DNA of 63,847 nucleotides, filler included, from Dirinaria sp. TL-2023a (taxonomy: Eukaryota): assembly GCA_051941275.1 (NCBI GenBank). It is 29 parts of 29 records of this genome, joined end to end, with 100 filler letters (N's around TTAATTAATTAA, not from the genome) between each part and the next. Parts side by side here need not be neighbours in the genome. Positions count along the whole stretch, not along the records: positions 11,213 to 13,334 come from JAVEBF010002382.1; 28 more parts are not named here. The stretch is one strand, 5' to 3'. Within the stretch, counting starts at the first letter, position 1. Each line of letters begins with the position of its first letter. Positions 2,825 to 50,623 of this stretch are shown one piece after another. The notes beneath the pieces are model-generated. The model had not been told where the DNA came from and ran no database searches. It saw only the letters and a list, made by a program, of their open reading frames with translations. The position numbers and the translations under genes are program-made.

Positions 2825-4397
2825 ATGAACAAGAATACCCTGGTCCCCAAAGGCTTTCAGCGATATGAAGTACAAAATCATTGGTTGACAGACCCTCAAA
2901 TATTGATAAGTGGCAGGATGCCGTCAATCTGCTCAACAGCCAGCGTAGGCAGCTTCGACCACAAACGGGCCCTGGCCCCAATGCAAGGATGGAGGCTATG
3001 CCACAAAACCCAACTTTCAAGGGGACACCAAGTTTGTACAATATGAAGCATTGGCTGCACTGCGTTGGGCATTCTGTGACTAGTCTGTACTCAATGTTTC
3101 TAACTAGACGAGCTAACGAAAGCAGGACACCTACATTGACGGCTTGAATGTCATTCATGTAGCCGGAACGAAAGGTAAGGGTAGTACATGCGCTTTTACA
3201 CAGTCTTTCCTTCAAGTGCATAGCAAACGGGCTGGCTTTCCTAAAAAGACCGGTTTATATACCTCACCGCATCTCAAAACAATCCGCGAGAGGATCCAAA
3301 TCGACTCTAAGCCAATCCAGAAGCACCTCTTTACGAAGTATTTCTACGAGGTTTGGAACAGTCTCACCTCCGAAGATCTACCTAGACCCCGGTTTTTACA
3401 GCTCTTGATGCTTGTAGCGGTCCATGCTTTTATTAGTGAGAAAGTAGAGGTTGCTATCTTCGAAACGCACAACGGTGGAGAATACGATGCTACGAATATC
3501 TTCACAAAGCCCATAGCCACCGGCATTGCAACTATCGGCATGGACCACGTGGAGCAGCTTGGACCCTCTATCGAAAACATAGCGTGGCACAAAGCAGGTA
3601 TATTCAAAACAGGGAGTCCAGCTTACTCGGTCAATCAGGAGAGTCAAGCCGCTGCGGTCCTGAAACGTCGTGCAAATGAGAGAAATGTGTCCCTGGAATT
3701 TGTTCGAGACGAGTTGGCAGACAACACCGACGCACCAGCTATGAAGACAGCAGTTCAAAGGAGGAACGCTGCTCTTGCCGTCCGACTTGCGAACGCATTT
3801 CTCTCCCAGAAAGGGCCAAATTGTGAGCATCGTCTAACATCACATGACGTTAGCGAAGGCATAGAAGATTTCTCCTGGAATGGTCGCTTTCAGCAAATCA
3901 GCCAAGGATGTCACAGATGGTTTTTGGATGGAGCACACAATGAATTGAGTGTTCCATACCCAGCACAGTGGTTCGCGGAAATGGTGACGAAAGACCTCAG
4001 GTTGTGGAAAGAAGTGTATCATATTATGCGCCCGCGCTGACACAACTGTACAGACATCTAGGACCAATACCACGTATTCTTATCTTCAGCCACCTTTCTC
4101 AACGTGACGGAGCAGCGATGCTACGTATCATAGCCAGAACATTACATGATCACGGTGTTGTCATCAATCATCTCATCTTAAGTACTTACCGAGAGCGACT
4201 AGATGGCCAAGAGGATACCGGTGAGCTGAGGACCATTATTCTCAGTAGTGCTTGGCCTGACTAAGTATCAGCTGGCGGCCATAAATTCCCCCTTTCTGAA
4301 ATGCTACAACAGCAGTACATCGATGCTTGGACAGAGTTCCAGCCAAACGCCATTGTATCAGTTGAGCCGACGGTAGAGGGGGCTTTGAGTCTTGCCA
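2825..4397 (+). CDS. Folylpolyglutamate synthase (FPGS, MET7/FolC family), 5 exons, 3'-truncated by contig end
   Basis: Motifs RYEDAVNLLNS, IHVAGTKGKGSTC, GLYTSPHL, ETHNGGEYDATN, IAWHKAGIFK, WNGRFQ, FLDGAHN. Introns 2870-2916, 3076-3125, 4001-4053 and 4221-4271 splice in frame. Confidence 0.93.
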
Positions 4398-4497
4398 NNN
4401 NNNNNNNNNNNNNNNNNNNNNNNNNNNNNNNNNNNNNNNNNTTAATTAATTAANNNNNNNNNNNNNNNNNNNNNNNNNNNNNNNNNNNNNNNNNNNN

Positions 4498-4903
4498 TAG
4501 TAGAGTCATCGTCGACGACAATCTCATGAATACGAGCTTTCTGATTAAAGTGCGAGCAGTCATTGACATAGTGATCGACTTCGTCACATTTTCGACAGAT
4601 GATGCGCTCTGAGATATTTCTTGAGATCGAAATATAGAGTCGACTGCTATTGTGAGTTGAGATGCTATCTCGAAAACGCTGTGAATTAAATATAGTGATC
4701 ACAGACGTTGAGTCACGAATAACTGCATTGACTGAAGATCTTAAAGTAGCAGCACTACTTGAAGTCGATACATCTAAACTCGTTTTGGATTTATTGTCTG
4801 CTCGATTTGCTATAAAATGACGTTGACGATTATTCAATTGAGTTAAATACGTTCTCAACTCATTTAGTGTTGTTGTTGCAGAGAAATTATCGATCATAGT
4901 TTT
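4498..4903 (-). mobile_element. Decayed retrotransposon gag with CCHC zinc knuckle (insertion host; continues at 6573-6641)
   Basis: CRKCDEVDHYVNDC fits CX2CX4HX4C. The frame reads through (..KKVLSRMQKT|MIDNFS..) once the insertion and one TSD copy are removed. Confidence 0.8.
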
Positions 4904-5654: not shown

Positions 5655-6305
5655 GAGAATGTCTGAAAAAGTCTTGACGATGTCATTGAAGCAGACTCAC
5701 TGTAAAGAGTGTCTGAACAGATCTTGACGATGTCATTGAAACAGACTCACTGTAGAGAATGTCTGAACAGATCTTGAAGATGTCATTGAAGCAGACTCAC
5801 TATGTAAAATCGAGCCAAAAAAGATTTCTAAAAAATCGATTGTCTGTCGCATCAGAATTTCGTCGCATTCTCTTGATGACACGAATTTTGAACTGTCTGT
5901 CGTATTAGAACTTTATCGACGCATTCTCTAATAACACGAATTTCGCACTGTCTGTCGCATCAGAACTTTATCGACGCATTCTCTAATGACACGAATTTCG
6001 CACAGTTGCTCAATCGTGTAGAGTCTTTTCGCATTCTTCAGATGACACGAACTTGATAATGCAACGATGCTCAAATCACAAGAACAGAGAAACATTATGT
6101 TGCGACAATTGCAGAGATTATACTCGTTCGCAAGCATGACGAGTTTGCAACAGTGCTTCAAAAGAGAAGAACACGATGTTGCGACAATTGCGAAAATTAT
6201 ACTCGTTCGCAAGCATCGCGAGTTTTGATGCAACGATGCTCAAATCACAAAGACAGAAAAACACGATATTGCGACAATTGCGAAGATTATACTCGTCCGC
6301 AAGTA
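5655..6305. repeat. Three internal tandem-repeat blocks of the LTR element
   Basis: About 50 bp x3 (tgtctgaacagatcttgacgatgtcattgaagcagactcact), about 55 bp x3 (ctgtctgtcgcatcagaact...acacgaattt), and ttgcgacaattgc..attatactcgt.cgcaag x3. Confidence 0.85.
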
Positions 6306-6358
6306 TTGCGAGTGTGATCTGAAGTTTACATCCTCAGCTAGATAAAGTGATAATATAG

Positions 6359-6572
6359 TATTAGAATCGATGCAGAGCAAGTCAATGCAGATATAGTTAA
6401 CTAAGGATATTATCACTAAGAAAGGAAAGAAGAAGAAGAGAAGCTAGATACAATGAGGGTCCCAGATATATACGCGTGCGGATGTCGCGTATCCCGATCG
6501 AGTTAGCGCATTACCCCTAAGAATCCTGAGAGGTGTTGCCCCAGATAGTATATCAGGTGCATGCTCGTAACA
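6359..6572 (-). repeat. 5' LTR (214 bp; terminal TG mutated to TA)
   Basis: Direct repeat of 4904-5117. Confidence 0.95.
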
Positions 6573-9500
6573 GTTTTCTGCATGCGCGACAGAACTTTTT
6601 TCTTCAACTTCATCATCACATAGTTCTGCGATATATCGACANNNNNNNNNNNNNNNNNNNNNNNNNNNNNNNNNNNNNNNNNNNNTTAATTAATTAANNN
6701 NNNNNNNNNNNNNNNNNNNNNNNNNNNNNNNNNNNNNNNNNGTCATCAGCAACCACGTCTGTTTCTCGACGAGTCACGAGCGCAAGCCCACAATTCTCGA
6801 ATCACACCCCCCCCTCCTTCCTCCTCCCTCCCCCCCTCTATTATATGTTACCACACTCTTTCAATAATAATAACCAATCCACGTGAATCCTTCCGGCCTG
6901 AGGCACCTAATCGTAACGAGCGAGGCCGATCTACTTATTATTATTGCTTTTTGTGCCGTCCGGGTGTGCGAGAGCAGCTGATTGGCGGAGAGTGCATTGC
7001 AACCATGAAGCAACCAGAGCCGATCGAACAACGGCCGCTAGAGCTAGAGCTGCAGCGATCGGCATCCCTTGCTTCTTACAGGCATGGTCGAAAACGGGAG
7101 TTACCTTACGCGTACCCTTCATCTATCGCTTGATCTTCCCCACCGGGCCGTTGCGATGGGACTGCGAACGTTGCTCAGCCGAGGCAGCCTAAAGCATGTA
7201 TCATGTACCTATGTTGTACTGGACCAAAAAAACCTGCATGCATTTCACAGAGCCTCAACGGGTCGTACACCATGAACGGCATTGAAAGGATCAATGGGCC
7301 CAAATGGTGTACCGAAGTATTTCGATAATCTTATCTCTAATGTCGAGTACGGGGAGGATCGAAATCGAGGTCCGACGCGCACTGGGACCACGTAGCCACA
7401 CCAAACTTCCCTCACCACGTCATTCATCCCATCCTCCGAATCCCTCGGGAAGCATACGAATTCGAACGGACGCTACAAAGGTAGGCTAGCCAATGCCGCG
7501 AGATGGCTCCCGGATGCGAAATCGTCGATTGCGTGAATTGCTCTGTGCCAAAGATTCCAAACCAGGTTTTCTCTTTCGGCTCTGCTGCTGTTCTGCTAGA
7601 TGTATGCACTCGTGCTTGTCCCCCGAACAGTTATCGCTTGACAGTGACAACACTCATGCTATCATTGGAACAGGTAAAGGGCAATTCAGCCGCTTGACTT
7701 AATGGAAATGCTTCTTTGCAAAGACCCGTCTGGCACGACACAATAAGTTCAAATGACATCGCAAATTTAGCGGGCACTGCGTTACCTTATCCTTTGAAAA
7801 TGGTCTACAAATACAGTATGTGCAACGCGTCCTGCCAAGGATAACACTAAGGTACTGGCATCCACACCGCTACTCCCCTCCTCATCCATCTATCTCCTAC
7901 AGCTTCACGGTCCCCCTCTCATGCTTTGATGCGACCGCCTGTCCGCTCAGATCGAAGTCCATAGTAGCTTCCGCTATCATCGATATGCGCTTTTATCTCG
8001 CAGCTCCTCGTAAACAAAAATTGAAGCTCCGCAAGGATTGTTAAAAAGTAAGTCAATAAAGCGAATGCACTCAAGCTTAAGAAAATAAAGAAAATAAAAA
8101 AAAAAGCGCGAAAAGCTTTCGCGTATAAACCTCAAATTCGCTCCTCGGAGAGAGAGCCTCATATTCACCCCTGTCCACACAACCCCCTTCCTTCCAAAAA
8201 ATCTCACCACCATCAGTATAAAAAACATCCTACCCTACATACTTGAAAATCTTCCATCACAGACCAACCTCCCAAGATCCAGCCCACCCTTTTTCTCAAT
8301 TCTTCCCAATAGCATTCCTTTCCCTGCAAAATGTCCCCCCTTTTGTCGTGAACAAGAATATATATAGCTCTGAAACCCTTTATTCCCTGATGAGAAGGAA
8401 AGCGCTTTTGTGTTTTCTTGCCATTGAGGGGGGATTTAAAGGTGAATTGTGATGGGAGGGGATTTTGGTAGGGCTCCTCAACGCACGGGGTGAGGGAGAG
8501 GGGAGCTGTAGATGTAGATGTAGATAGTAAAGTAGAGCGAATAGGTAGGATGGGGGTTCTGAGGGAATGAATGCCTGGGCTAGTATGTGGCGGTTGAGGA
8601 TCTATAGACTGGACTAGGATAGGAAAAGTTTCGAGGTTTTATATAGGGATTAGAGTAGGGTTTTGGTTGTGGGAAAGAATAACTACATGTACTGTGGATA
8701 TAGATGTAATGGTAGATTAGAGTTAATCACCTACCTACCTACCGCCACACACCACCACTACTGACAACTGATAAACTTTTCGCTCGCACACCACGACTAC
8801 CCTCTATCTCTCCTCTTCTCTCTCGTCAAAACTTTGTATAGTGGTGTTCGCTAGATGGAAGATGGAAATTGGAAAATCTCCCCTNNNNNNNNNNNNNNNN
8901 NNNNNNNNNNNNNNNNNNNNNNNNNNNNTTAATTAATTAANNNNNNNNNNNNNNNNNNNNNNNNNNNNNNNNNNNNNNNNNNNNTCGCATAATCGCGAAT
9001 TGCCCTCGGGCATTCTAGCAACAGGAAAGATCTTCAAATACCACAGACTAAATGAAGATTGATGAAAAAGACTATTCTAAGCGAAGCGATAGAGATGGAA
9101 TAAGAAGAAAAATTCAAATGCTAGTAAAGAGTACTCGATATTTATACAAGTATTAGTCTTTGCAAAATCGTTGGCGGTGTAGAAATTTACGCCAATCATG
9201 TATAGCATGAACTGCCATTAGCCATGACCGTGCTTTACTTCTCGGCACTTATTCGAAAAAATTGAGATCCCACGGATTATCTACAACTACGCGTCCATCT
9301 CTATGGTTCAAATAGCGGTACAATTTTCGACAAGATAACTGAAGCGTCAAGACTGTGCATACTACACCTCGTTAACCTGCACAACACCCATCAGTTTTCC
9401 ACAAATTCTGCTCGACGAAACGCCTTAGCCGCCGCCGGGCCGCATATTTGAAAAAGTGGTCTCTCGTATTTCCCCCCCGGATGTGGGCGTCTTCTTCAAA

Positions 9501-11212
9501 AATATCTGTATTTCCGCTACCATTAGATGAAAAAGATCTGTTCGTCATGGTCTGGAACAAAATGTAAGGAAGTACCTATACCAAATTAGTCATTGAAAGC
9601 TGACTAGCCATCCATCTGTCCTTGGACCTAAACGTTGAGGAAGGATGCTCCACAGAAGTCAATCCTCATCATAAAAAACCACTCGCGGAAGCAGCTACTA
9701 AAGTCGCATTTCTTATGTCGCTCATAGACCTATTCAGCGTCACATTTCGGCCAAGTTTTCTGATGCCAAAAGAAATATTGGCTTGGAGAAGCAGATCAAT
9801 TTGACGAAGCTTTCTCTTCTGTAGCAAGTGTAGGTAGTACTTCGATCAACCCCCAGTTGCTACCAAAACCCACTAACCCGGCCCAGGAACCCATGAGCGG
9901 GTCAGCCAAGGGAAATTCTTAATTTCTATAAAACAGCACAAGAGATTGACACGACCGTCATGTAATCATGATAGAAGAATACTCACCCTCAAGCCTCTCA
10001 AACCGGATGGCGTCTCTTTAATCTACCATACAACGTCATAAGGCCAAGTCGGATGCTACGCAGAAAATCTGCGGGAACCAGTCAGCCAAAGCTGAGCCAG
10101 TAATTCCATGCTCTCAGCTCATGCTCTTCGATCATCATCATTCCCGTGGGTCAGATGTAGCGTCGATGGATCATCATTGAGCTTTTGTGTGAGGGAAATA
10201 CTGGCCTTTAATATCCTTTGGAAGAGATCTTCGTGCAGGGGTGAACATGCCACCAAAAAAAAAAAAAAAAAGAAGAAAAGAATGGCAAATGCGTTCAGTA
10301 CCACCTTAAAGATTAGAGAAACATGAAAGATAGCCAGACTCGCAGACCAAGAGAGACCTATATACGAGGCATGTATGTTTGTCACACGAATTTGTTTTCT
10401 CAGCAAGACTCGCAACAAATCGGCGCCAGCGCATATCTCAAGCCCACCAAATCATCAGACAACTCATCTATCACTAATATCAAAGACACAGCATACGAGT
10501 TTGCTTTAGCTTGAAAGATTTTCTCGTCTGATCTGTACGCTCGTCTTCCGTCCATGATTGATCAAACGAACTTTCACGTATTCTCCACGCTAGACATTTT
10601 ATAATCAATAGTACGCTCTGCTATCATGTACCCCCATCATAGAGCTAGCTGGCGATGCAATCAGACTTCTTCTCAACGTATCTCTCATGAATCTCTACTT
10701 CTGTTCGCCAAAGTACTATCAAACGATGCCAGCAAAATTACACGCTATTCGTCTACCAACGCGCAGGCGGACAAACATCAAAATTTCCAATCCAATCTTA
10801 TCATGAATCTCATCATTTATCATCTATATTCATATCAAGTAATTTTGCAAATCAATTGAAATCACGGGACAAAAGCCAGCCCAGCAGCAAAATATTGTCT
10901 TAAAGAAGATCAAATATTTTAGGATGTCAGGATCGACATACAAGAAAACAAAATCGCATAATTCCTCTATTAAAAAAATCTAAATCAAGATGCTACTAAA
11001 TGTACTCTCGGGATATGATTTTCGATCCTGAAAAATAGCAATAAGTCATTAGCGTGTCTTAACGTATCGTCGTTTATCCAACATATACACATACCACACC
11101 ACTCTGCTTATANNNNNNNNNNNNNNNNNNNNNNNNNNNNNNNNNNNNNNNNNNNNTTAATTAATTAANNNNNNNNNNNNNNNNNNNNNNNNNNNNNNNN
11201 NNNNNNNNNNNN

Positions 11213-11638
11213 GCCTTGCTCTTGTGCCATGATTCCTAGGGTCCAGGGATGGACATGAAGAGTAATGGCCCAGTCGTATAGAATCGACTTGATTGCGGCA
11301 CCTGACATGGCCTTGCATTGCAGAAGGTACTGAAGCTTTCTTGTCTTGCGTGGCTCTTTGTAATTGAGCATTTTAATTACCTCCATACCAACAGCGATAC
11401 ATTTGGCGACATATGGTTGATGTGTGGAGACTTTTTTCCGAGTGGCGCACGCTATTCGGGCCCACATCATGAAGTCATCGATGATTTCGAGGCGCGTTGT
11501 GTTCTGTCGATTGGGATCCGACAGCTCGATCGCTGCAACGCCACTTTGATCCATGTTTGTGAGGGTGACTTGCATGTCGGATCGCAATTTGGAGGGACCG
11601 ATCTCCTTGCGCCAATCTACTTGAATGAGTGCTGCCAT
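11213..11638 (-). CDS. Divergent Spo11 / topoisomerase VI-A-like protein, N-terminal catalytic winged-helix domain; 3'-truncated by contig end
   Basis: Residues 76-142 align by eye without gaps to the Spo11 segment KFS..TKRDIYY..VDNIINDISCMLKV..SLHILSTSKG. RKLQY matches RDIYY (Tyr104, codon 11329-11327), and ILYD....LHV....LGI.....G is conserved. Confidence 0.65.
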
Positions 11639-11694
11639 TACGACGTTTGGGCTAGATGAAGCTTGATTGGACTTGTAACGGCTGCGAGAGATTT

Positions 11695-12195
11695 GCGGAA
11701 CAGCGGAATCGCTTGGAACCGACTTGTGATAGTCTTAGGTCAAGAACAAGGGGAAGAGGTTGGCCGGTCCGGTTGGCAGATGTGTGGAAGAGCGGTAACT
11801 TTTGGACCAAACTACGTTGAGCTTGGTCAGGTACAAATGAGCGATGAGATGTGCGGCCGCGGAAGTATGCAAGAGCAGTTGAACTTTGAACCAAGTCACG
11901 GCGAACTTGGACGAGCACAAACCAACGAGAAGAGGCTGACTGAACAAGGCGAAAGATGATGGAAGAGCGATTTAACTTTGGACCAAGTTACGACGACCTT
12001 GGATAAGTACACACGAACAGTAAGGGGGTGGTCCGCTGCGGGGAAAGATGTGCGCAAGAGCAGCAGAAGTTTGGCACAACTTGCGATAAACTTCGGCAAT
12101 ACAATGGAACAGTGAGAGAGGTCTGCCGCGGCGAATGTTCTGAGGGTGAGCTGTAGATTGTTGGAGGAAGTTAAGATAGACTTGGATCAAGCTGG
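11695..12195. repeat. Degenerate tandem array, about 6 units of about 90 bp, in the divergent intergenic region
   Basis: Recurring core aagagc....aactttggaccaagt.acg.cga.cttgg...agtaca at about 11698, 11787, 11871, 11963, 12056 and 12148. Confidence 0.75.
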
Positions 12196-12323
12196 GCTTA
12201 GGTAAACTCTTGGCATCACACACGCTGGAAGTACGAAACCGAGCTGCCACCCTTGATCTCTAAATTCTGTCCGTGAAAGCTGTTGTGTATTGTCAAATTA
12301 GAGTATAGAATTCTTTGATTATC

Positions 12324-13334
12324 ATGGCAGACAATAAGCGTAAGGCAGAAGGCCCGCTAGATGAAAGGGGACGAAGGAGCAGACCCCGAGCGTATACAGA
12401 ACCAAAAAACACGATTGATACCCTCGAGCCGTGGCCTCTTTCCATGAAAGTTGAAGAGCTGACAGCGGACCTACTACCGGTAGCCTTTCAAAACCTCGGC
12501 CGCGGCCGACAGTTGATAGACCTGTGGACCGTCCTTACTTCATCCTATACTGGCACGGACATCGCTTTGTTTGGCGCGTGGACCAGAATCAAGAGAATAA
12601 CAGCAGAGACGATTATGCAGTGGAAGCATGGCCCCGAAGTCTCATCCCTGTCAGATCGTCGACCGACCGGCGCACAGGGTTCAACAAGAATCATGAAAAC
12701 GTTGCGAATGCTAGAAGTAGAGACGCAGCGAGACGAGATGACAAGTTTGAGAGCAGCGGCGATTCAGATGGAACTGGATTACATGATGCTTCTTTACGGA
12801 ACCAACCACCATGTGGTTGATGAGATGGTCCCAGATAACAAGGAGAGGACTGCGCATCTGATACGGGCCTTATCAGATGGGTCATTCATCAACGAGCCCA
12901 CTCACGAGCCCACTCACGAGCCCATCAACAAATCTCCCAATGTAGAGGCTGTCGCAGGAAGCAATACAAGTAACAGTCTAGAGGATTCAATCATGTCCTT
13001 CAAGCAAGAAGTAGACCAAGCGGAGGTACCTTCGTTTGTCGGGTACGCAGATATAATAGACATGTTGGACGACCTTGTAGAGATTCCACAGATCTTCAAG
13101 CATCTCATCGAGCCACGGTCGTCAGTTGGTTTCCAAGGAATCCTTTTGTTTGGGCCGCCCGGGACAGGGAAGACTCTGTTAGCGCAGATGCTTACGGCCA
13201 AGAAGGGCCTCACCTTTTTCAAGGTACCGGCCGACCAGCTGATATCGAAGTGGGTCGAGGAGACAGAGAAGTACGAGTCTCGTCGCCAAACTTGCGGATA
13301 TCTCTGATCATTTCTAGAATGCTACAAGCACTGT
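12324..13334 (+). CDS. AAA+ ATPase of the Vps4/katanin/spastin clade with unrecognised N-terminal region; 3'-truncated
   Basis: GILLFGPPGTGKT (Walker A) and TFFKVPADQLISKWVEETEK. Intron 13271-13317 (gtacga..ctag) continues in frame as MLQAL. No MIT domain seen. Confidence 0.88.
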
Positions 13335-13434: not shown

Positions 13435-15552
13435 ATAGACACTACATGCGTCTGATGAATGTTGAAGAATCATCAATATCAAACTTCGTCTTTGCCGCAG
13501 ATACTTCTATTGACAATAACGCAGGGGACAACGAAAACAACAAACCTACATTTCGAGGTGAAAAACAACCTCTCATCTGCATTTGCGGGCATAAACATTG
13601 ATACTTCGAATGTCACTACCTCAATGATGAGAAACGCTCTGTCAATTGAAAATCTAATGAGAGAACTCAGAAGAAGGTTGATGATGCCATGAAGAATGAG
13701 AAGAAAAGAAAGCAGATTGAAAACAACATAGCAAGATCTAAAGAAATACAGACAAAGAAAGTCAAAACCTCTACATCTACCTCTGAGTCTGTCTCAACAT
13801 CTGCTTCAACATCAACCGAAAAAGCAGAAACATTTGCATTCTTTGCATTTGCAACCGAAATCGACGCGCCTCATATTTTGCAGTCCTCATGAATACTAGA
13901 TCACGCGATCAATTTGCACGTTGCAAACAAAGATATGAAGCATCGCTTCATTAAAGAAAAAGACGAGAACGAAACAACGATGTTATCAGACAACGAAAGT
14001 CTTGCAATAAAAGTCTATGACCACATCGATATTAACGTCAAAACATCTACAGAAGACAATATGATAACGTTGCTCAATGTTGTCTATGTACCTGACTTTA
14101 TGATCAACATAGTATCGAGAGATATTCTGAAAGAAAAAGGCGTATATCTTAACACTCGAACTCGACATTTTATGAGAAATGAAGTCCTCATAATAACCGT
14201 TTCTAAGATCGATGACTACTATGTACTGAAACATAATGCACTACATAAAGAGATGGCAGCAACTGCTCTTGCAACTGACTTAACATCAAGCACACGAACT
14301 CGCACTTTAAATGACTGACATCGACTTCTTGCACATGCACACGATGAAGCGATAATGCATTTAGCAACAGCAGTTGAAGAAGTGAAAATTGACGATAAGA
14401 AGTTAGTATCTAAAATAAACAAATGCGAAGAATGTGCACTTTCAAAGACACATAAAATTATATTCAGATCATCAGAAAAATCAGAAACGTCGAACAAACC
14501 TTTTTTTCGCATTATCTATGACCTCATTGACATGACGATTGCTCTGAATAAGGATCAATAAATCTCACACATTGCATGCTCTATGATCGAATTTCATATG
14601 ATATATACTCATCCGCATAAGAGGCAGGCAATCGAAACACTCATCAACGTCATACAAACGATTGAAATTAAATATGAGGTCAAGATAATGTTTGTACGAA
14701 TCGATGACGAGCGTTCACTAGACAACGATTGAGATATCTACAGAGCAAGCAAAGACATTACTATGAAATCTTCCGCATCAGATACATCTGCTCAAAACGA
14801 TTATAGCGAACGCATCGAAGGTATACTTATTTTTAAGTCAAGAATTATGAGAGCTCAAGCAGAATTATCGATTTACTTATGATCATGAATTAATCAAACT
14901 GCCGAGTACCTTATGAATCGCACTTCATCTAAAAAGCATGTCTGAAAAACGTCTTTTGAAATGACAACAAACAAGAAGCCAAACATAGCATATTTAGTGC
15001 AGTTTGAAGCAAAGGTATACTCAATTGAAAAGGCAATACTCAGACGCGAAAAAATAAGAGTCAGAGCACATATCGACTTTCTTGTAGAATACGATAGCAC
15101 AAACATCTATCTCATTTGAATTTCTAGTCAGAAGAAAATTATAAGAACTCGCGACGTGATCTTCGACGAGGATTTCAGCTATAAGTCACACGAAATAGAT
15201 GCAGCACAGCTGATCTCTGAGTCTTTCTTACGAAATGATACACTCGATATTTCACGAAACAACTTCATCAGAGTCACGGAAATTGATTTCGATAGTGACG
15301 AAGACTTATTTGAAGCGCTTACAGACACTATACGCGATGATCAGATATATGAGAAAGCAACAAATACAACAAAGAAAGATACATCAGAATATCTGCTCTC
15401 ATCTGCTTCAACAACTTCAGAAAGCAACACGTTATTTACGTTATCAAGTTCTTTCTCTACTAGTTCGAAATTATCTCAAGCAACAGATGCAGGTTCTACT
15501 CAAGCAACAGATGCAGATTCTACTCAGACAACGAATGCAGACTTTACATCGA
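13435..15552 (+). mobile_element. Ty1/Copia gag-protease-integrase relic, hypermutated
   Basis: CICGHKH*YFEC knuckle; *ILDHAINLH protease; D*HRLLAH...CEECALSK (HHCC); FFRIIYDL, RIDDERSL, QNDYSER integrase core directly after the protease (Copia order); Trp codons read TGA. Confidence 0.92.
15473..15548 (+). repeat. 24-bp tandem repeat x3 inside the Copia relic
   Basis: ctcaagcaacagatgcag(g/a)ttcta units (QATDAGST / QATDADST / QTTNADFT). Confidence 0.8.
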
Positions 15553-16133: not shown

Positions 16134-17764
16134 CTAGGACGCGAGACTCAAACCTCCAGCATCGGCCGTGATACTCCCCACCAGGCCACCACCATCCTCC
16201 AGCTGCGCCTCCTTCTTCTTCCTGCGAAGCCGTTCTTTCACCTCCTGCACCAACCTGCCTTGCTCAACCAGAACACCATCCTTCTCCGCATGCCCCTCAG
16301 GCAGCCCCAACTCCTTGACCCTCACTTTCCCCGCCGCCAACTCGTCCTCGCCCAGGATGACGGCGAAAGGAACCCCGCCCGCCTCAGCGGCCTTGAACTG
16401 CTGCGGCAGTTTGGGTTTGGCCTTGTACGCGAACTCGGCCTTGACGCCGGCGTCCCACAGCGTGCGGGCGACGGCCATCCGCTCCTCCAGCAGGCCCGTG
16501 AACCCTTTCCCGCCGCCGAAGGCCATGACGAAGACGTCGGTTTCGGTGGTGCGCACGGTTTCGAGGGATTGCGATTGTGAGGATGCCATCAGGCGTGCTT
16601 TTGTGACGGAGAAGATCCGGTCCACTCCGAAGGAGATGCCCACGCATGGGATCTGCGTGCTGCGCCCGCTGAACATGCCGACTAGATTGTCGTAGCGGCC
16701 TCCTGCGGCGATGGAGCCGACGCCGATGGTTGGGTCCGAGGATCGGTCTTCGTCGTTCGGGTTGTGCGATTGCGGCGGTTTGCGCGATGAGCTTTCTTTT
16801 TTGGCGGTTTGTTGGATCGATTGGCTTGTACTTTTTGATGATGATGATGATGATGATAAGGGAGCTGAGCCGTCGGTCACGACTTCGTAGATCAAGCCGG
16901 TGTAGTAATCGAGTCCGCGGGCGAGGGCGAGGTTGAATTCGATCGAGGGCAGGATGTCGAAGGCGGACAGGTATCGGAACAACAGCGACATGTCTTCCAG
17001 CCCCTTTTGCATGGTCGGGTTCTGGTTGCCTCCTTCTTGGAGCGACGGGTCGTTTTGCAGAGATTCGAGGATCTCGGCAGCGCCCCCCTTCCGTTGCACG
17101 TATCCCCATATTCGATCCGCGATCTCGGGTGGAAGGCCTTTTTCTTCGATCATCTCCCGCCGAACTTCGTCCCAGGGGGACTTGTCGAGTTTGTCAACGG
17201 CGCTGCTGATCGCCCGCGTCTTTTCCGCCGGCACCCCGCACACGGCGAACATCCCGTCCAATATGCCCCTGTGATTGACTTTGATGCTGAATTTCCCGCC
17301 CCAGCCCAGGTCTTTGAAGATTTCGCAAACTATCCGCAGGATCTCCGCGTCCGGGAGCATGGGGTCGTAAGTGCCCGCGATGTCGAAGTCGCATTGGTAG
17401 AATTCCCGCATCCGGCCTTTCGACACCGCCGGCTGATCTCGCCGGTAGACTTTGGCGATGTGATACCGTTTGATGTTCTGTACTTGAGGGTTCTGGGCCA
17501 GCCAGCGCGCGAAGGGTACGGTGAGGTCGTAGCGCAGAGAGCAGATTTCTCCTCCTTGGTCGGCGAGGTCGTAGATGAGTTTGCTGTCTTCGCCATATTT
17601 GCCCGCCAGGATCTCGCGGAGCTCGAAGACTGGTCTGAAAACGGTGTCAGGCTAGAAGTCTACTACGGTTTCAAGGTTCCCCCCTTTCGTGAAGCGACGA
17701 ACGTATCTATCGTGACTGCGCCGTGACGCTTGAAGACGTTGGTTATGGTTGAGAATATCCGGTC
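16134..17764 (-). CDS. HTS1: Histidyl-tRNA synthetase, 5'-truncated; exons 17764-17703 and 17634-16134
   Basis: [65 protein letters not shown] and a C-terminal anticodon-binding domain. Intron 17635-17702. Confidence 0.97.
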
Positions 17765-26974: not shown

Positions 26975-28805
26975 TTATATAATCCCAACCACGACCATAA
27001 CCATGCCTAAAATCGTAATCCATACTGCAGACATCAAGCTCGGCACCGAAACCTCATCCCTATTCGCCGCCGAATCCGTCGGTAAAGCCGCAAGCGCAGA
27101 AGTCGCTAACGCGGTGAAGTTCGATAACGGGACGGTGCTCGAGTCGACTACGATCGCCGTGCCATGCGCCGAGATCGTATGCCCGCTCACCGTGACCACG
27201 GCGCCGGAGCTGGGCAGCTCGGTCCCGTCCACCGAGTACCCGCCGCTGTTTTTGGTGAAGACTTGCCCATCCACCGTGAACACCGGTGAAGATAAAGCGG
27301 TCATGGAGGCCAGGGGTACGGTGTCAGTGCCTACTACGATGGCGCCTGTTGTGGCGAGGCTGATCGGTGTGCCGCTTATAGTAATTTCGCTACCAAGAGA
27401 GAGTTCTGTACCGCCAACGGAGTATCCCGATGGGTTAGCGGTGAGGGTTTGTCCTTCAACAGCGAAGGCTGAACCTGCGGGCAAAGGTAAAGGATAAGTT
27501 CTTGTGCCGATGACTACGCCCACTGGATTCAGGCTGACTGGTGTATTCGATATTGTGACCACTTCTCCAGGGTATAGAGAAGTGCCGTCGATGCTGAAGC
27601 CTCCAGCTGCGGCAGTGAAGACTTGGCCAGCCACATCAAAGACACTCAGTTTAGCTGTAGGGGCTAGATTAAGTGTTCTTGTCCCGCCTATGACGAGTTC
27701 GGAAGTTTGGCCGAGGGAAAGAACGGTGCCTGAGATAGTGATCGCCTGGCCGGCCTGCAAAGTCTTGCCGCCAATAACATAGCCTCCTGAGGGCGCGGCT
27801 GTGATCTGGTTGTTGGCTCCGTAAGAGGTGGGCGTGTTGGGGACTTGCATAGTGCTGAAGCCGACAACGAGCAGACCGGAGGGGCCAAGGGAGACACGTG
27901 TACCGCTAACAGTAATGGCGGGACCACCGGCTGTAAGAGCGGTATTAGCTATTGAATACACCTGTGGTCCTGTGATGGATGGCGATGCGCTAGGCAAGTT
28001 GGCGATGGATGCGTAAGGCACGATGGAGGATCCAACATGCAGTCCGTCTGAACCAAGCGAAAGGACGGTACCGTGGACAGTGATTGGTGCGGAGCCCGAA
28101 GTCAAGGCGGTGCCGTCGATAGAAAAGATGGACGGATGCTGGTCCGGAGCAGGCGTGGGAAGAGAAGAAAAAGGGATGGTACTGCCTCCAAGTACAACAC
28201 CACCGATCTGCAAAACCGAGATTCTCGTGCCCGAAATCGTGGCCTGAGCACCTCGGCTCAAAGTTTGCGAGCCTATGATGATAGCTCCGTCAGCTGCTGT
28301 GGCGATCTGTTGGCCTGCCACTGTGGGTATGTGAGGGATGGAAACTGTGCTCCGTGCGTTCACCACGACTCCAGAGCCACTTGGCAAAACCGAGAGAGTA
28401 GATCCATCGATGGTGGCCGGAGGTCCGCCTGCTTCCAGAGTGCTACCGTGGATGATAATGTTACCACCGGATTGTGTCTGAATGTGCTGACCAGCAAGTG
28501 TAGGAAGAGCAGCTGCAGATGGTATGGCAAGGGTACTGCCGCCGACGACGATCCCATTGGAGGCGAGACTCAATGAAGTCCCTTTGACATTGACACCGGG
28601 TCCGCCGACTGAAAGAGTCTGTCCACTAACAACGAAAGAAGGTTCAGAGCCGCTCGTAGGATCTACACCATTGAGACTAGCAGGGGGAATGGTCTTAGAA
28701 CCTATAACAAGGCCCCCAGAGCCCAGGCTAATCGTTGTGCTAGCAATCGTAATACCAGATCCCCCTTTTGTAAGCACAGCGTTCCCAATTTGAATAGAGG
28801 AAGGA
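26975..28805 (-). CDS. Ser/Thr/Gly-rich repetitive cell-surface protein with putative GPI signal, 5'-truncated
   Basis: Over 600 open codons; about 9 repeats like GQTLTAGGPAITVSGTxVSLGPSGLVVG; hydrophobic C-terminal tail after DSAA. Confidence 0.88.
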
Positions 28806-29698: not shown

Positions 29699-30910
29699 AT
29701 GGCTGAGAAGGTTGTCCCCTCCCACGCCTCCATCTTCTCTTCCCTTGCTGACGAACACCCTCACCAACAGGAACTCTCCCCGTACCTTCTCGGCCGGCGC
29801 CTAGCCCGCGAAGCTAGGCCACGTCCGTGGGCTCAACCAGCCAAGACACAGCCCGCGGACAGTGATATCCGGACCGGACCGGCAATGTCACGACCTGTCG
29901 CCCCTCGTTTCTCCAGACTCGAGGGTTCCTCCGGAGTCCCGTCACGACTCCCTCTTCGCATCTCCGCCCCCCGTGTCGCCCAGCACGGCGGTAGCCAGGC
30001 CCTGTCACAGCCTGTTCTCGGCACCCAGTCAGTGGCTCTGCCAACTTTGAGCAGTAGGTTGACCCCCTCTCTTTATGTCTTTCGCCCTTTCCAGGCCCTT
30101 TCCTTCCTCATCTTCGTTTCCGTTTGTTGCTCTTGTTTTGGTGTTGTGGTTTTTGGTCTGGCTTTGGTATGGTGTCGCTGCCTGTCTTTATGTCACTGCT
30201 TCTGCGGTTGAGTGAGCCTTCATCCATGTCCCCAGTTTCTCCCTTCGTCGTTGTCGGTCGTCCCTTCCCATGCGGTTCTTTGCTTTTGAGCCATTCCTTC
30301 TACGCTTGAGCCAGCATTCTCCTTGTTCACTGTTTCACTCTTTCGTCGACGTCGGTCGTTGCTTCCCTTGCGGTTCTTTGCTTCTTCCCCCATCATTCGG
30401 CTGACTGTCAGTCCAGTGTCGCATGGACCGGTGCCAGCAAGGCCAACTCCGGAGCCGGCCACGACCTCTGCTCCAGAGATCGACGAACGGACGTCGGTAA
30501 GTCTCTGCTTGGCTCTTTGCCCCTGGCCTCAACCAACACCGCACAGCTCAGGGTCCGGGGCACCACGACTGCCCCACTTCAAGACGTGGCCGCCAGGCCT
30601 ACAGTCGTGTCCCCGCCTCCTGTCGGGAGGCCCAACCTTGACGACAATCTGCAGGAAGCCCTGATCAACTTCCTCGCATTCACGTCGGCGTGGGATCGCG
30701 CGCATCCATCGCAGGCACCTGCTGCGGTGGAGATCCCCACCGATGACAATTTCACCAGCGAGCCCTTCTTCGCAGATGCGGGCTGAGCTCATGTCAGCCC
30801 TCCGTCGTCGACACTACGCCAACCAGCTGCCGCTGCTGCTTTCCTCCGGCAAGCCGATCGACAAGGCACGCACCTGGACATCCTCGTCAAAAGGGATGTG
30901 GGCCAAGGTA
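29699..30910 (+). CDS. Possible multi-exon Pro/Ala-rich hypothetical gene (structure unresolved)
   Basis: ATG after a pyrimidine-rich leader; GC-rich coding-like blocks separated by T-rich intron-like blocks; no family recognised. Confidence 0.3.
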
Positions 30911-32632: not shown

Positions 32633-33304
32633 TTGAGACTATATCTGTCAGAAATCTGGCTATGTAATTTCCAAAAATACCATGGCGGCGGATTTGTTCT
32701 GTTTGTTGCGTCTAGATCTTTTTCTCGATCTCCTTTTTTAGTCTAGAATTTCTTCGTTCCCTTCGAACAGAGTCATTAGTAATCTCCTTCTTCAACTTGG
32801 ATTCTCATACTGCCCTCAGTCGAGCGTCTGAAATGACTTCATCATCTTCTTGTTCTGTTCCTTAAGGTCGCTCAACTTGTCAAAAGTGTTTTGATCGGAT
32901 GTGGTTTGTCAGATCTCAATAGCTTTTTGAATTTAAGAATCGGTAGCACGAGAACGATGAAGTCGATATTGTGCTTTTCAATTCGATTGAGAGAGCGTAA
33001 AGGATTCTTTGAGATCTGATACAATAGAGTCAATATATCTCGACTAAGAATATACAGATATTGCCGAGGCTCAAGTTGAGGCTCTCGAGCTGTACTTCAA
33101 GCACTGGAAGATGGAGTTGTTTGGAATCTCATGATCTCGAAAAGTACATCAACGGAACATCTCTCATCGTCTTATTGATTGATGATAGATGCAAGAACTC
33201 TTTNNNNNNNNNNNNNNNNNNNNNNNNNNNNNNNNNNNNNNNNNNNNTTAATTAATTAANNNNNNNNNNNNNNNNNNNNNNNNNNNNNNNNNNNNNNNNN
33301 NNNT

Positions 33305-35499: not shown

Positions 35500-37595
35500 A
35501 TTCTTACTCGATTCAACACTCACTAGGGACCTATGCGAGATCTATGTACTTGTGTCGACGCTGCGCTGACGCTGCGTCTACTTTCTTTATATTACATGTC
35601 GTTTCATCTATTCGTAGTACTAGAAAATCCTTCATGCGAGAACTCTATGAGTTTAAGAATTTAAAGAATCTGAATCTGAAGGATCAGCGACTGTTTGAAA
35701 CTGATTAAGTAGATCAGTGAATAAAATCATTCGTATCGCTGCGATGACGCTCGCGACGCTATTTAGCAGTTTTCTCACGTCTGTGATATTGTTCGTTCTT
35801 TGTTGCATCTTTAGTCTTTTTTGTCTTTATGTAAAACACGTTAGTAACACATGTTTAATTGTCATGCGACTCTGTTCGCAGTCGTAGATTTCTGTAATCA
35901 TTTCGAGAACACGTCGCTCGCTCAAGAATTGATTAAAATCTATTTTGCTCGTTCTCAACTGTGTGAGCAATGCGTTATGTGACTTCGTTCGTTCATCGTG
36001 AAATCGCATATAACGATGAGTTACTGTTGACGTCAATGTGCGATAATGAGTTTCGTTGATATTTTTCTTTCACTTTCTTCGTCATTTCGCGCGAGTTTGT
36101 TCTTGAATTAATGCTGCTCTGACGACAGATTCGCACGTTAGTTAACTCAAAAACGATTGTTTATGTGTTTCATTGACTATTCTGTCTGTTTTTTCGTTGT
36201 TTTTTATTTCTTTGTGATTAGATATTCAATGAAGTTTCAGTTGAGTTTCTTTTTTCTGTATCGTTTTATGCGCGCTCTGTATGCGTCGAAGACGTGATTG
36301 ATCTGCTGTTGATGTCATTGTATTTATCATTCTTAACGAGATCTGACTGTCTGAGTAACTTTTATATATTCTGTCGACGCAGTTATCGTTTTTTACGCAA
36401 TGAGCTGTCAACTACTCGATCTCGACAGTGATACTCTCGAGCTCTTCGTGATGAGTCAATACTATGTCGATTTCTTTAAAACGTCTTTCTTTCTCTCAGT
36501 TTGCGTCGATTGTAACTGCGAACACATCATTGTCTTGATCGTTTTCGTCTGAGTAAATTCTTCAATATGAATTTGATTTGTTCTCATTATGATATTTTAT
36601 CGCTAGTGTTTCGTTTTGAATAACTATTTTCGAAGATTTCACTCACGATGTCGCAGTATAAATCTGTCGACGTGATATGAACTCTTCGTTTAGTGCTCGA
36701 CGCATTCATTTTCTTTTAAATTTCAATGACGTCTTTCTGAGTTTTGATCTACGATCTCTTTTGAAACTTATGTCACGTTTTATACGCGTCACTGCTATTT
36801 CGATCGTTTTTTTTTTGAGTCTCTTGCGTTTATGTTCGTTATTAATCTCTGAAGCAGTTTTTTGAGATGAATGTCGATAAACGTCGTGTTAGTCTTCATC
36901 TGCAGTGTTTTTGTTGATGTCGTTTTGTAAACGTCTGTGATTTGACGAAGTTCTCTATTTTGTATAAAACGCAGTTTCGCGTCGACTGTCTTTCTGTGAC
37001 TCTTAATACTCGTCGACGTGTATCACACTGCTGTTTCGTGATTAATCGCTGAGCGCGACACTGCGAAATATATACTTTTATTTGTCGTTATTGTCGAATC
37101 TCATGTGAAATCAATAATTATTTGTGTCGTTTTGTGTTTAACGACAAACTTCGTCTCGATTTGACGTAGATGTGATCTTCATCGAAATCTTGAGTTCAGT
37201 TGAATTTCAAACATTTTAATGTTTGATTTGATCTTTATTTCGTGATTATTTAACGTAATACTAACGTTCATATTGAATTTTTTGAGAGTTCTCGAGAAGT
37301 GAATTAGTTTATGTTTTCGCTTCGCGAATTTTGAGTCATGTTTCTATGTTTATTGTTCGCACTCGTTATATATCTTCTTGAGTACTTGACAATTGCGTTC
37401 CGTTGACTCACTATAGATTAATATGTTGACGTCGTCGACGAATCTCGTAACGCTAGTTCGAAATCGTATATTGTCGCACATGTCGAGTAAATCCGCGTTA
37501 TAAAATAAATAAAATATCGATGAGAGCGACGATCTCTGAGATATGTCGACTGTTACGTCGCGTTTCACTTGCGTGTAATCATCAATCGTTAATGT
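35500..37595 (-). mobile_element. Tad1-like LINE ORF2 (RT + RNase H + 3' end), hypermutated
   Basis: DISQRSSLSSIFYLFYNADLL (= GIPQGSPLSPILYLFY), FVDD, and RNase H relics YSDSQ and H*ISNH...NEKTD. The 3' end matches 47990-48050. Confidence 0.93.
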
Positions 37596-40691: not shown

Positions 40692-41654
40692 CTATTGAAA
40701 CACGATCACGAAATTCTTTCCTTTACCACTACCCATCTTTTCATACGCGCCAATCGCCTCCTCGATCCCCACCTTCTTCAAGTCGGTCTCCCTCGCAGTC
40801 GTCAAGTTTCCACTCTCAAATCCTTCTCTCATCTCCTCTAGATCCTTCGCCGTCTCCGCCATCGTCATCAATAATGAATTGCACCCCACAATGGCGAGCT
40901 CCTGACGATATGCATATTTCATATCTATCGCCAACTCGGTCGAGCCTGCCTTCGGCGCGGTAATGAACGCGAATCGACCTCGTGGCGCCAGACACATCAA
41001 CGCCGCCTTCATCAAATCCGGCGTGCCCACGGTATCAATGACTACGTCCGGGCCTTTGCCGTCTGTCAAATCTCTGGCAGTCTTCAATTGCGGATCCGAA
41101 ACCAGATTCACATCTGCAGTATCCCTACGCGCGGCACCGAGGACTTTGCAACCTCGATTGCGTGCCAGCTGACACGCCGCCGAGCCCACCGCGCCTGTTG
41201 CGCCAAGTACGAGCACCGTATCCGTTGGTCGAAGCATGGCGCGGTGGAGCGCCAGTGCCGCCGTCGTGAATGGTACGCCGACCGTCGCTGCCTGTGTGAA
41301 ACTCAGGTTCGAAGGCTTTTTGGCAATTGCATCGCACGGAACGATAAGGTACTCCGCGTGGGTGCCGTCGGTTGTGAAACCTAGAGCGTCGCCGCTGGTC
41401 CCATAGACCTCTTGGCCTATGTAATCCGCAGGGCCATCAGTGATGATACCGGCGTAGTCGCGGCCGGGGACACGGGGATAGGTGGTGTGCGGAAAGGCGC
41501 CATGGGCGTTGCCGACATCGCTGGGGTTGATGCCTGCGGCGCGGACTTTGACGAGGACGCTGTCTGGAGGGAGAGATGGGATGGGCAAGCTAGTCAGGGT
41601 GAGGCTATCGCCAGCGGAGTCGAGGCGAAGTGCGTGCATAGAGTCTTTACTCAT
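40692..41654 (-). CDS. MDR-family (GroES-like, quinone-oxidoreductase type) NADPH oxidoreductase, complete and intronless, 320 aa
   Basis: VLVKVRAAGINPSD, PRVPGRDYAG, DGTHAEY, KPSNLSFTQAA, VLVLGATGAVG, GPDVVIDTVG. Confidence 0.93.
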   Translation of the reverse strand: MSKDSMHALRLDSAGDSLTLTSLPIPSLPPDSVLVKVRAAGINPSDVGNAHGAFPHTTYPRVPGRDYAGIITDGPADYIGQEVYGTSGDALGFTTDGTHAEYLIVPCDAIAKKPSNLSFTQAATVGVPFTTAALALHRAMLRPTDTVLVLGATGAVGSAACQLARNRGCKVLGAARRDTADVNLVSDPQLKTARDLTDGKGPDVVIDTVGTPDLMKAALMCLAPRGRFAFITAPKAGSTELAIDMKYAYRQELAIVGCNSLLMTMAETAKDLEEMREGFESGNLTTARETDLKKVGIEEAIGAYEKMGSGKGKNFVIVFQ

Positions 41655-42083
41655 GGTAGATGTTCAAGGTAGAGAAGGGAGAATGAGGGGCAGAGCAACA
41701 GCATGGACGTCCGCATTGTTTATGTAGTCGATTGGCCGTCGCGATAATGGTCTATTTTTCTCGCTTTCCTGCCATATGGAGTCCCGACACAATCGCCCTA
41801 CGCTTCTCTTGTATTTTCTACTACCGTAACAGGCTCTAACGACTTTCGATATCGCTAAAGTCAAGGTAGGACTGCAGAACTTTAATTACGTGCAGATGAA
41901 TCAGCGGCGCAACGGCCCGGGATTTTCAATTCCGCTTGGCTTTCGTCATTGTCATAATATTTAATTGATGGATGATCAGCGGCNNNNNNNNNNNNNNNNN
42001 NNNNNNNNNNNNNNNNNNNNNNNNNNNTTAATTAATTAANNNNNNNNNNNNNNNNNNNNNNNNNNNNNNNNNNNNNNNNNNNN

Positions 42084-44276: not shown

Positions 44277-45720
44277 GTTCAAATATCAAGGAGTGCCGTT
44301 CTTCAATTACAGGATTCAGTAGAGCTCACCCAAGAGAGAGCCATTTGTATGGTCTGTTCCTGGATAAAGGGTTTTCTCATGCGCAGGGCTATGATCACAA
44401 TCTGGCGTCAGTATGGGTACTAGAATCTCTCTCCCGCGAAAGTGAAGCGTCTCAGGAAGCGTTTGCCATGCTGTATATTATCGCTTTCATGGACTCCGAA
44501 TGCATATCGGAAGAGCTCTTGCGGCCGGACCCTAAAAGGAACCAGCTACTCAAATATCCTCACACTGAGCCTGACCTCTTTCAGAGACTCAGAATTCTTC
44601 TAAATGCCTCACTTGTGGAGAGGGGCCCTAGCGAGTCGGACATCAAGGTTCACCGAATGGTTCAGCAAGTCGTCCGTGCAAAAGTTTCAAAAGACCCTCC
44701 CCTTGCTGAAAAAGTTTTTCATGATGTGCTCGCCAGGGTATCAATGTATTGGCCGTACCTTGACCGGATCTTCGTCGCTGGTACGCAAGCGAAAGTAGAT
44801 CTATGGCCGAGATGTGCCGAATTGCTTCCACACGTGTTAAGTGTAAGTCGAGATTATTTCGAGCTCAGAGATATAGGTAGCGTCTCCCAACCGAGTCTTG
44901 ACCTTGCAGAATTGCTTTACGAAGCCTCCAAGTAAGCGAGTAAGCCCTATCATTCACGAAGACTCTCTTTGACTAATTACAGCTATCACATCGAGCGAAA
45001 CGATCCTAGCTAAGCCACGCAGTTGCTCGATCTTGCCTGTTCGATATGTCCCTCCATAAAGGGAAGGACTGATTTGACGGAATACCATCTACGTATATGG
45101 CGAGGCAGGATAGGGGTGGCTTTCTTGACTCGAAATCAGGTCGAATACCACAAACATGCCGAGAAGTGTTACAAGGTCGAAATGGGCTTTTACGAAAAGC
45201 ATGCCCAATTATCCGTTGGGTTGGCAACAGCGAACCTCCACATGGGTATCGCCTACAACATGAAGTCCCTCTATTGGGAAGCAATACCTTTTCTGGAAGA
45301 GTCTGCAAGAGTTCGAAGAGGACTGCCCTGCTTTAAGAACGATTGGCTATTTAGCCCCATGTATCAACTTGCACACTCGCACCTTCATCTTGGGGATTAC
45401 GCCAAGGCTGCAGAGCTCTTAGAAATGGCGATAGACGATCGTTGGGAAGTGCTAGGAGAAAATGACCGTTTTTCTGCGAGGTTAATGAAAACCATTACAA
45501 GGGCGCTTCAGAGAATTGGCATTCACAGGACTGGAGCTCTTTTCTATACGCTTGGCGATGTGAAAAATCATCAAGAACAATTTGATCAGAGTTTATCACT
45601 TTATCTCAAAGTCGAAATTCACTTCAGACTGACAGCAGAATCTACAAATTTGAGAACATTGCATTACGAATTCAAGATGGCGGCTCATTATGCCAGACTG
45701 TGTGATTATGAAACGGCAAG
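44277..45720 (+). pseudogene. NLR-like (post-NB-ARC winged helix + TPR) gene fragment with an in-frame TAA
   Basis: LASVW, IIAFMDSECISEELL, LLNASLV, VHRMVQQVVR, then TPR-like helices. Introns at about 44932-44982 and 45481-45528. TAA at 45011-45013 in the spliced frame. Confidence 0.78.
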
Positions 45721-46465
45721 GTGAAGCTTCCGCTTCCGTATACGTAGGCATGGTGTTGATTATCTCGACGGGACCTGTCTTGACGAAGTCCTTTATCATT
45801 ACGATCTCGAGCCTCATGCACGTCGACACGTATGCTGAGCTGCATGGCTGTACTCACAGTGCCTATCGTCGACTGAGGAGGATTTTCCCCCTCTGCTTGA
45901 TAAAGCAATTCAGGTCTTCAACGAAATTTCACCAAACGATCCAAGGACTGCATATTCGCTGACAGAAATAGATGCTGGGAGCTTAGTCTCGTATGATTAT
46001 CTGTAATATGTGTTGCTGATGACTATCAGATAATGTTGAATATGAAGGTCATTGAGCCGCAATGGCATGAGAATGTGAGGACGGACACAAAAGCGCTTGC
46101 ACATCTTCTGCAAAGATGCAGTACGTGCATTAGCTTGAGTTGGCCTGTTTCTACAGCCTTACCTTAGTCCAACGAGAGGCAAATGTTGTGGCTTATTTCG
46201 AGCCCGCTTACCTATTGATATTCGCCAAGGTCAAAGTTCAAACCCACCCACCTCTCTTTACGATTACCCTGCTTCGATCTTACCGCTGTTGCATTCAGAA
46301 TCCACGTTGATAGAGACCTAAGGTATAAGTTCACCTTGATGTATCCGTTTCTGTGATGCCAAATANNNNNNNNNNNNNNNNNNNNNNNNNNNNNNNNNNN
46401 NNNNNNNNNTTAATTAATTAANNNNNNNNNNNNNNNNNNNNNNNNNNNNNNNNNNNNNNNNNNNN

Positions 46466-50494: not shown

Positions 50495-50623
50495 CTGCAT
50501 GAGATGATATTAGCATATTTAAAGAGCAGAGCATAGATGCAGAACCCAGAAAACCCGGGAGATGCTGGCTTGTATTGAAAACAGAACGGATTAAGTGTAA
50601 GAAACACGGGAAGAGCTTCGCAT

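Follow-up and report, generated by a model that had tools for sequence, protein, structure and literature searches.

The closest described relatives of the locus reported here are the archaeal topoisomerase VI A subunit (Top6A) and the meiotic protein Spo11, together with the Toprim-containing JetD/DUF2399 protein of the Wadjet systems and the Mini-A proteins, which excerpts of one article describe as phage and archaeal-virus proteins that resemble the A subunit and stand alone (PMC7671362). Excerpts of two further articles state that fungi have just one SPO11 (PMC4071758) and name SPO11 paralogues from plants only (PMC12203943). The stretch of DNA that was analysed (hereafter the window) comprises 63,847 nucleotides, filler included, from Dirinaria sp. 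TL-2023a (GenBank assembly GCA_051941275.1); it consists of 29 contigs, each of about 2.1 kb, with N/TTAATTAATTAA linkers between them, and does not form a single locus. The element in question occupies exactly one whole contig (JAVEBF010002382.1; 11213-13334; 2122 bp) with a guanine-plus-cytosine (GC) content of 0.50, for which no other copy was found within the window by blastn, and it contains two open reading frames (ORFs) arranged head to head. ORF A probably holds the initial 141 codons of a gene belonging to a divergent, stand-alone and intron-bearing Top6A/Spo11-like family that is separate from canonical meiotic SPO11, while ORF B, which codes for an AAA ATPase, would lie beside it by plain adjacency.

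ORF A (11213..11638, minus strand) starts with an ATG at 11638 and remains open over 141 codons to the contig end. It appears to encode an N-terminal helix and a winged-helix (5Y-CAP-like) region, forming the 5' part of a divergent Top6A/Spo11-like gene. Exhaustive phmmer comparison of its protein (P0001; 141 visible residues) with 1.84 billion representatives recovered 37 relatives at E<=1e-3, 14 of them at <=1e-10 and three at <=1e-30, and a search of the ESM Atlas gave no usable match. The relatives, which span 23-73% identity, are mostly short ORFs and many are fragmentary; four are 391-507 residues long, and these match PF21180 (TOP6A-Spo11_Toprim) above cutoff, with E-values from 1.8e-14 to 7.8e-8. 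The ATG of P0001 aligns with the N-termini of the family (..[IV]xLDWR..) in a 16-sequence alignment (A1), and the visible fragment aligns to residues 1-153 of one of the relatives, P0147, which databases already tag with PF21180. Y104 is the sole invariant column of A1, with R61, R100, H130, P131 and G135 nearly invariant, and all six of these residues are present in ORF A. A larger alignment (A4) comprises 25 rows, made up of 24 of the 37 matches and the translation of a metagenomic locus (L001), with the shorter matches left out; here a tyrosine at the Y104 position is at least 90% conserved. Conservation in both alignments singles out Tyr104 (codon TAC, 11327..11329, minus strand) as the candidate catalytic residue. 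The nearly invariant Arg100 (codon AGA, 11339-11341, minus strand) lies four residues before it, an R-x3-Y spacing which is presumably equal to that of Spo11. One repetitive protein of 962 residues with six matched stretches (P0142) was considered an unrelated repeat protein and was excluded from all alignments.

Beyond the region visible in ORF A, the relatives continue into a Toprim domain. PF21180 was identified above cutoff in seven of the 25 A4 members (best E 4.9e-17), which on reading of the sequences are those long enough to include the Toprim region, and TP6A_N (PF04406) was detected in none of the 25 at E<=10. The archaeal Top6A chain 2zbk_A is matched by both P0147 (E 1.6e-5) and a four-sequence profile (A2; E 8.3e-8), as is 1d3y_A. 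The family motif VVVEH aligns on VLVVEK, which contains the Toprim glutamate, and the family DHD aligns on the DAD/DGD (DxD) of these Top6A matches. L001 and a second metagenomic locus (L002) likewise carry EYRN/EHN and DHDxxG. As judged from these alignments, the Toprim glutamate and DxD are kept in the relatives that reach them. A search for homologous proteins with A2 returned P0147 itself and nothing else.

The fold of the family was predicted for P0147, with an AlphaFold2 model built on A4 (predicted local distance difference test score, pLDDT, 67.2; predicted template modelling score, pTM, 0.64). The ten best PDB matches of this model in Foldseek are all Top6A or Spo11, with E-values from 3.6e-11 to 2.8e-6, while the match at rank 11 falls to 2.2e-3. 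Comparison with Methanosarcina mazei Top6A in VIA-align gave a Z-score of 19.9 over 321 aligned residues (root-mean-square deviation 4.3), model residues 11..415 being paired with chain residues 9..368. The yeast Spo11 structures 8urq and 8uru gave Z-scores of 17.6 and 17.2, again over both domains, and the Top6A/Spo11 structural alignments run from residues 11-13 to residues 412-415 of the model. JetD (7til_B) was matched with a Z-score of 8.3 over the Toprim half alone. The Spo11/Top6A-like call that had been made on ORF A from sequence is thus borne out through its relatives, both by PF21180 and by a predicted structure that matches Top6A and Spo11 over the two domains. The recognition is supported, and it is solely by way of the relatives and the model that it can be demonstrated.

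The family has a single named member, which is annotated as a hypothetical protein and comes from the ascomycete Cirrosporium novae-zelandiae. L002 contains a GT..CTGAC..AG intron between the motifs IFVT and TGGYPD, and many of the database ORFs stop at IFVT because of the intron that precedes TGGYPD. This canonical intron indicates that the family genes are eukaryotic. Scans of prokaryotic genome contigs and of viral contigs produced 75 and 119 pattern matches, respectively, none of which was confirmed as a family relative. The window itself contains a decayed second copy of the family, corresponding to the Toprim half (32822..33203, minus strand), which begins exactly at the end of its contig (31107-33203). 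It was found by tblastn with P0156 (E 8.75e-8 against the window and 4e-12 against the contig alone), P0157, P0149, P0131 and P0132. Read from 33203 to 32822, this copy contains five in-frame stops and one frameshift and has DHE in place of DHD, and the GC content of its contig is 0.395 as opposed to 0.50 for the contig of ORF A. The decay is not ascribed to repeat-induced point mutation (RIP), as the classical RIP indices are not elevated and mark no contig, that of the decayed copy included (TpA/ApT 0.45-0.86 across the contigs). A weak tblastn coincidence of three queries at 30587-30649 (E ~1), in GC-rich sequence where ORFs overlap, was dismissed as a chance match. Because TP6A_N is not detected, relatives are few, their identities spread widely and the second copy is decayed, the family looks distinct from canonical meiotic SPO11, and it seems to be multi-copy with a fast turnover. 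No account of fungi having a second family of Spo11-like proteins was found in the open literature (with PMC9665070, PMC11302465, PMC7671362, PMC6652019, PMC12203943 and the Tiamat preprint among the sources, as excerpts), supplements and subscription journals being outside this scope.

If the family works as its fold and conserved residues suggest, its members would combine a winged helix bearing the conserved Arg-x3-Tyr with a Toprim domain bearing the glutamate and DxD(xxG). The tyrosine would attack the DNA backbone with the assistance of Mg2+ bound by the Toprim domain, and two subunits acting jointly would break both strands, with covalent attachment through a 5'-phosphotyrosyl link, as do Top6A and Spo11. 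With no evident GHKL partner, the protein would be expected to act as a nuclease rather than as a topoisomerase. The genome would hold more than one copy of the family, one of them decayed, and the head-to-head placement of ORF B across a repeat-filled spacer would most likely reflect plain adjacency and not a dedicated two-gene system.

The first exon of ORF B (12324..13270, plus strand) starts with an ATG at 12324 and codes for an N-terminal region of residues 1 to about 235, followed by the beginning of an AAA domain of the classic type. PF00004 was identified at residues 273-316 of the protein (P0002) with an E-value of 2.9e-9 and 37.9 bits, against a Pfam cutoff of 21.2. The translation contains a Walker A motif, GPPGTGKT, at residues 277-284 (13152-13175, plus strand), which aligns to the GPPGTGKT of a CDC48-family protein. 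Pore loop 1 reads W-V-E (13251..13259, plus strand) where CDC48-type domains have W/Y-V-G, with BLASTP aligning SKWVEETEK of P0002 to SKWVGESEK and SKYVGETEE of the CDC48 D1 and D2 domains. A probable intron of 47 nt (GTACGA...CTGAT...TAG; 13271..13317, plus strand) was read from the sequence and most likely joins WVEETEK to MLQAL, as splicing restores the usual AAA sequence past the pore loop; a second exon (..K MLQAL; 13318-13334, plus strand) would then run to the contig end. The contig covers roughly 100 residues of the ATPase domain, with Walker B and all that follows it beyond the contig end.

The best PDB matches of P0002 are VAT/Cdc48/p97 (VAT, E 4.2e-20), whose scores sum over two domains, followed by Afg2 and Vps4 (E 8.6e-12). 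The classic AAA call made for this ORF stands on PF00004 and Walker A, and the narrower Vps4/katanin-clade label, which the roughly 100 domain residues on the contig are too few to decide, is neither upheld nor rejected. Comparison with Pfam revealed no MIT or other N-terminal family at E<=1, an insignificant match of residues 1-235 to a PT repeat (E 0.22) aside; nor was a Cdc48 N-domain found in this region. Among longer proteins P0002 has 991 matches, the best 120 of which cover 14-37% of the query and thus the AAA part. Residues 1-235 matched the 327-residue protein of the window itself and nothing else among proteins of similar length, residues 1-225 gave no usable match in the ESM Atlas, and an AlphaFold2 model from the single sequence was unusable (pLDDT 35.2). 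On the best explanation, ORF B codes for an AAA ATPase of the classic clade that is lineage-restricted and whose pore loop is altered.

The ORF coordinates leave a 685-bp upstream region (11639..12323) common to the two divergent genes, much of which is taken up by a degenerate tandem array of six units, each 84-92 bp long (11689..12225; 537 bp in all). The units have a mean column identity of 70% when aligned (A5), and a repeat search recovered a 27-nt core (family D1) in five copies at 84-93 bp spacing. No repeat was reported in the intergenic region by Tandem Repeats Finder at a minimum score of 30. Tandem units 2-4 carry a palindromic core, CCAA-N12-TTGG, which occurs seven times in the window against an expected 2.65, with three of the seven occurrences inside the array. 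The array may act as upstream regulatory sequence. The layout given in the first-pass annotation, with two head-to-head ORFs on one contig, a 685-bp spacer and both ORFs cut by the contig ends, agrees with the sequence and the ORF coordinates, and its description of the spacer as mostly a tandem array is fair at 537 of 685 bp, degenerate though the array is.

Information on whether the two genes occur together elsewhere comes from metagenomes, where a scan with A2 gave 474 pattern matches that resolved to two related loci, L001 and L002, and a scan with A3 gave 38 pattern matches, none of them confirmed. L002 is too short to inform on linkage, leaving one informative locus. In L001 (9.5 kb) a family member that looks intact occupies about 3340-4590 and has the motifs RFLQY, VEYRN and DHDFPG, and the locus continues upstream of it for 3.3 kb and downstream for 5 kb; no P0002-like sequence was detected in this locus at E<=1e-3. 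The Spo11-like gene of L001 is placed between long ORFs with ankyrin repeats, which are on the opposite strand, and an ORF whose P-loop match to NB-ARC falls below the Pfam cutoff (E 0.0082), at 6295-9502 on the minus strand and 526-1098 on the plus strand. These surroundings hint at a neighbourhood of the NOD-like receptor (NLR) type.

Several observations weigh against the reading of ORF A as the start of a stand-alone Top6A/Spo11-like gene with ORF B beside it by plain adjacency. P0001 itself matched no Pfam family at E<=1 and no PDB sequence at E<=10 (phmmer), and the A4 profile, which has no Toprim columns because most of its rows are short, picked up no Top6A in the PDB, its sole matches there being four chains of matrix proteins (E 0.74-0.95). 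The winged-helix assignment derives from a medium-confidence model of a 31%-identical relative and not from sequence profiles. The candidate Tyr104 and Arg100 positions, which the model places within helix two of its winged helix, were assigned by conservation. The contig ends at codon 141, so that the window gene has no visible Toprim half and its catalytic competence is not visible. In the question of linkage, the family member of L001 is a distant relative (29% identity) and provides a sample of one. A conserved partner with a fast-evolving N-terminus could also have escaped detection, since the searches for AAA relatives used a word index and were less sensitive than the exhaustive search made with ORF A. 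Further, the clearly decayed state of the copy at 32822-33203 would also fit ORF A being a non-functional relic of the family whose first 141 codons are intact by chance, as would the truncated or degenerate appearance of the database relatives P0130, P0133 and P0136 and the location of ORF A on a 2-kb unplaced fragment. Such a relic is nevertheless improbable when set against 141 codons free of stops, the retention of all six conserved residues and a GC content well above that of the decayed copy's contig, and the conserved intron, rather than decay, explains many of the short database ORFs. The occurrence of the family in several copies, one of them decayed, likewise fits an accessory or selfish lifestyle of the kind implied by a co-regulated DNA-breaking module.

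In such a module, the Spo11-like gene and the AAA gene would serve selfish, defence or meiotic-drive purposes, with the array as a bidirectional promoter and the AAA protein remodelling or removing the bound nuclease. The head-to-head arrangement over 685 bp with six repeats of about 90 bp, three of which contain CCAA-N12-TTGG, and the atypical nature of both genes, one a divergent Top6A-like gene and the other with a W-V-E pore loop and an N-terminus for which no relative was detected, would be consistent with this proposal, which was that of the first-pass annotation. Head-to-head orientation is common, however: among neighbouring genes, about one pair in four would be divergent simply from the possible orientations. 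The pairing is found in none of the one informative locus, as L001, the sole related locus with flanks, lacks such an AAA gene, and conservation of the pair is not seen, as 37 relatives were detected for the Spo11-like gene and none for the AAA N-terminus. The module is accordingly unsupported and would be surprising; no evidence was found that the two genes work together, and their adjacency is so far a single case. The reading of ORF A as a fast-evolving orthologue of the organism's canonical meiotic SPO11 is the most doubtful of all, even though the family shares the Spo11 two-domain fold and conserves the tyrosine, arginine and Toprim residues. TP6A_N is missing throughout the A4 members, the A2 profile matches archaeal Top6A and not yeast Spo11 in the PDB, a conserved SPO11 domain would be expected to yield far more than 37 relatives, and the members range from 23 to 73% identity, many of them being fragmentary. 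The decayed paralogous copy in the same window also argues against a single-copy SPO11 orthologue. A broader proposal, in which the ascomycetes possess, in addition to meiotic SPO11, a second, multi-copy, intron-bearing and rapidly turning-over Top6A/Spo11-like family that retains its catalytic tyrosine and Toprim residues and makes double-strand breaks outside the canonical programme of meiosis in a selfish, mobile or allorecognition/defence role, possibly with an AAA unfoldase recruited in this lineage on a shared, repeat-filled promoter to control the covalent protein-DNA adduct or strip it, is conceivable and would be an unlikely though not far-fetched outcome; its AAA-partner component, considered alone, is a good deal less plausible. 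The stand-alone family, with ORF B adjacent to it by position, thus remains the probable interpretation.

The other contigs of the window carry unrelated content. Pieces of housekeeping genes are found on 2-kb contigs, namely histidyl-tRNA synthetase (16137-17651, minus strand), the TFIIA large subunit (49397-50509, minus strand) and a zinc alcohol dehydrogenase (40695-41663, minus strand); the assembly is therefore generally fragmented, and the small contigs are not repeats alone. A small contig of its own contains DUF7779 ORFs (E 1.4e-17) followed by TPR repeats at 44279-45721 (plus strand), a combination which presumably corresponds to the C-terminal portion common in fungal NB-ARC/TPR proteins of the NLR type. 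Two open frames of 609 and 587 residues from stop to stop (26978-28804 and 59908-61668, both minus strand) match no Pfam family at E<=1e-5. A retrotransposon Pol beta-barrel (PF22936, E 8.1e-7), the relic of a transposon, is encoded at 13893-14315 (plus strand) in the AT-rich contig 13435-15552; this contig adjoins that of ORF A and ORF B in the window but has no physical linkage to it. Five further contigs (35500-37595, 46466-48554, 53031-55118, 55219-57304 and 61771-63847) are AT-rich, with GC contents of 0.33-0.365; they show CpG observed/expected ratios of about 2.0-2.3 and no enrichment of TpA, an unusual composition unlike that of classical RIP.

The family retains the fold and the presumed catalytic residues of a DNA-breaking subunit and has diverged too far for recognition by the standard N-terminal profile, and it is present in several copies. 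It would be additional to the one SPO11 that fungi are stated to have (PMC4071758, as excerpted). A family of this kind would be a candidate agent of non-meiotic DNA breakage in fungi, whether programmed or selfish, and would provide a natural test of a Spo11-type enzyme without its usual partners.

When placed beside the known systems, ORF B resembles the classic-clade AAA proteins (VAT/Cdc48/p97, Afg2 and Vps4) in Walker A and its flanks, and differs from them in the replacement of the pore-loop glycine by glutamate and in an N-terminal region of 235 residues with no detected relative. The likeness of the Spo11-like family to Wadjet JetD/DUF2399 lies in the Toprim half, with Pfam matches below threshold to JetD_C in three and to DUF2399 in two of the 25 A4 members, whereas the N-terminal domain is unmatched, the scores lie far below those of Top6A and no SMC-type partner was seen. 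The family shares with meiotic Spo11, as represented by the yeast core complex (8urq/8uru), the same two-domain fold, a candidate catalytic tyrosine with its preceding arginine and the acidic Toprim residues. In contrast to Spo11 it is not single-copy here, and the Spo11 chains in the PDB have no sequence match to P0147 or the A2 profile. With archaeal Top6A (9o0g, 2zbk, 2q2e and 1d3y) it shares the winged-helix and Toprim architecture of the P0147 model, a Toprim glutamate and DxD that can be aligned by sequence, and a PF21180 signal above cutoff. It departs from Top6A in having RKLQY, EHRN and DHD in place of the usual forms of these motifs, in the lack of a TP6A_N match, and in being encoded by eukaryotic, intron-bearing genes in several copies, one of them decayed. 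No GHKL Top6B or Top6B-like partner is visible on the contig of ORF A or in L001. Mini-A proteins, as far as the excerpts of PMC7671362 describe them, differ from the family in that the viral and prokaryotic contig scans contained no relative of the latter. This comparison is by description only, and the alignment of the P0147 model, which begins with residue 11 of the model paired to residue 9 of the chain, suggests that the N-terminal part is present in the family. The family and Mini-A nevertheless correspond in being A-subunit homologues with no evident GHKL partner, in which the catalytic tyrosine (a candidate one in the family) and the E...DxDxxG residues are conserved (PMC7671362, as excerpted).

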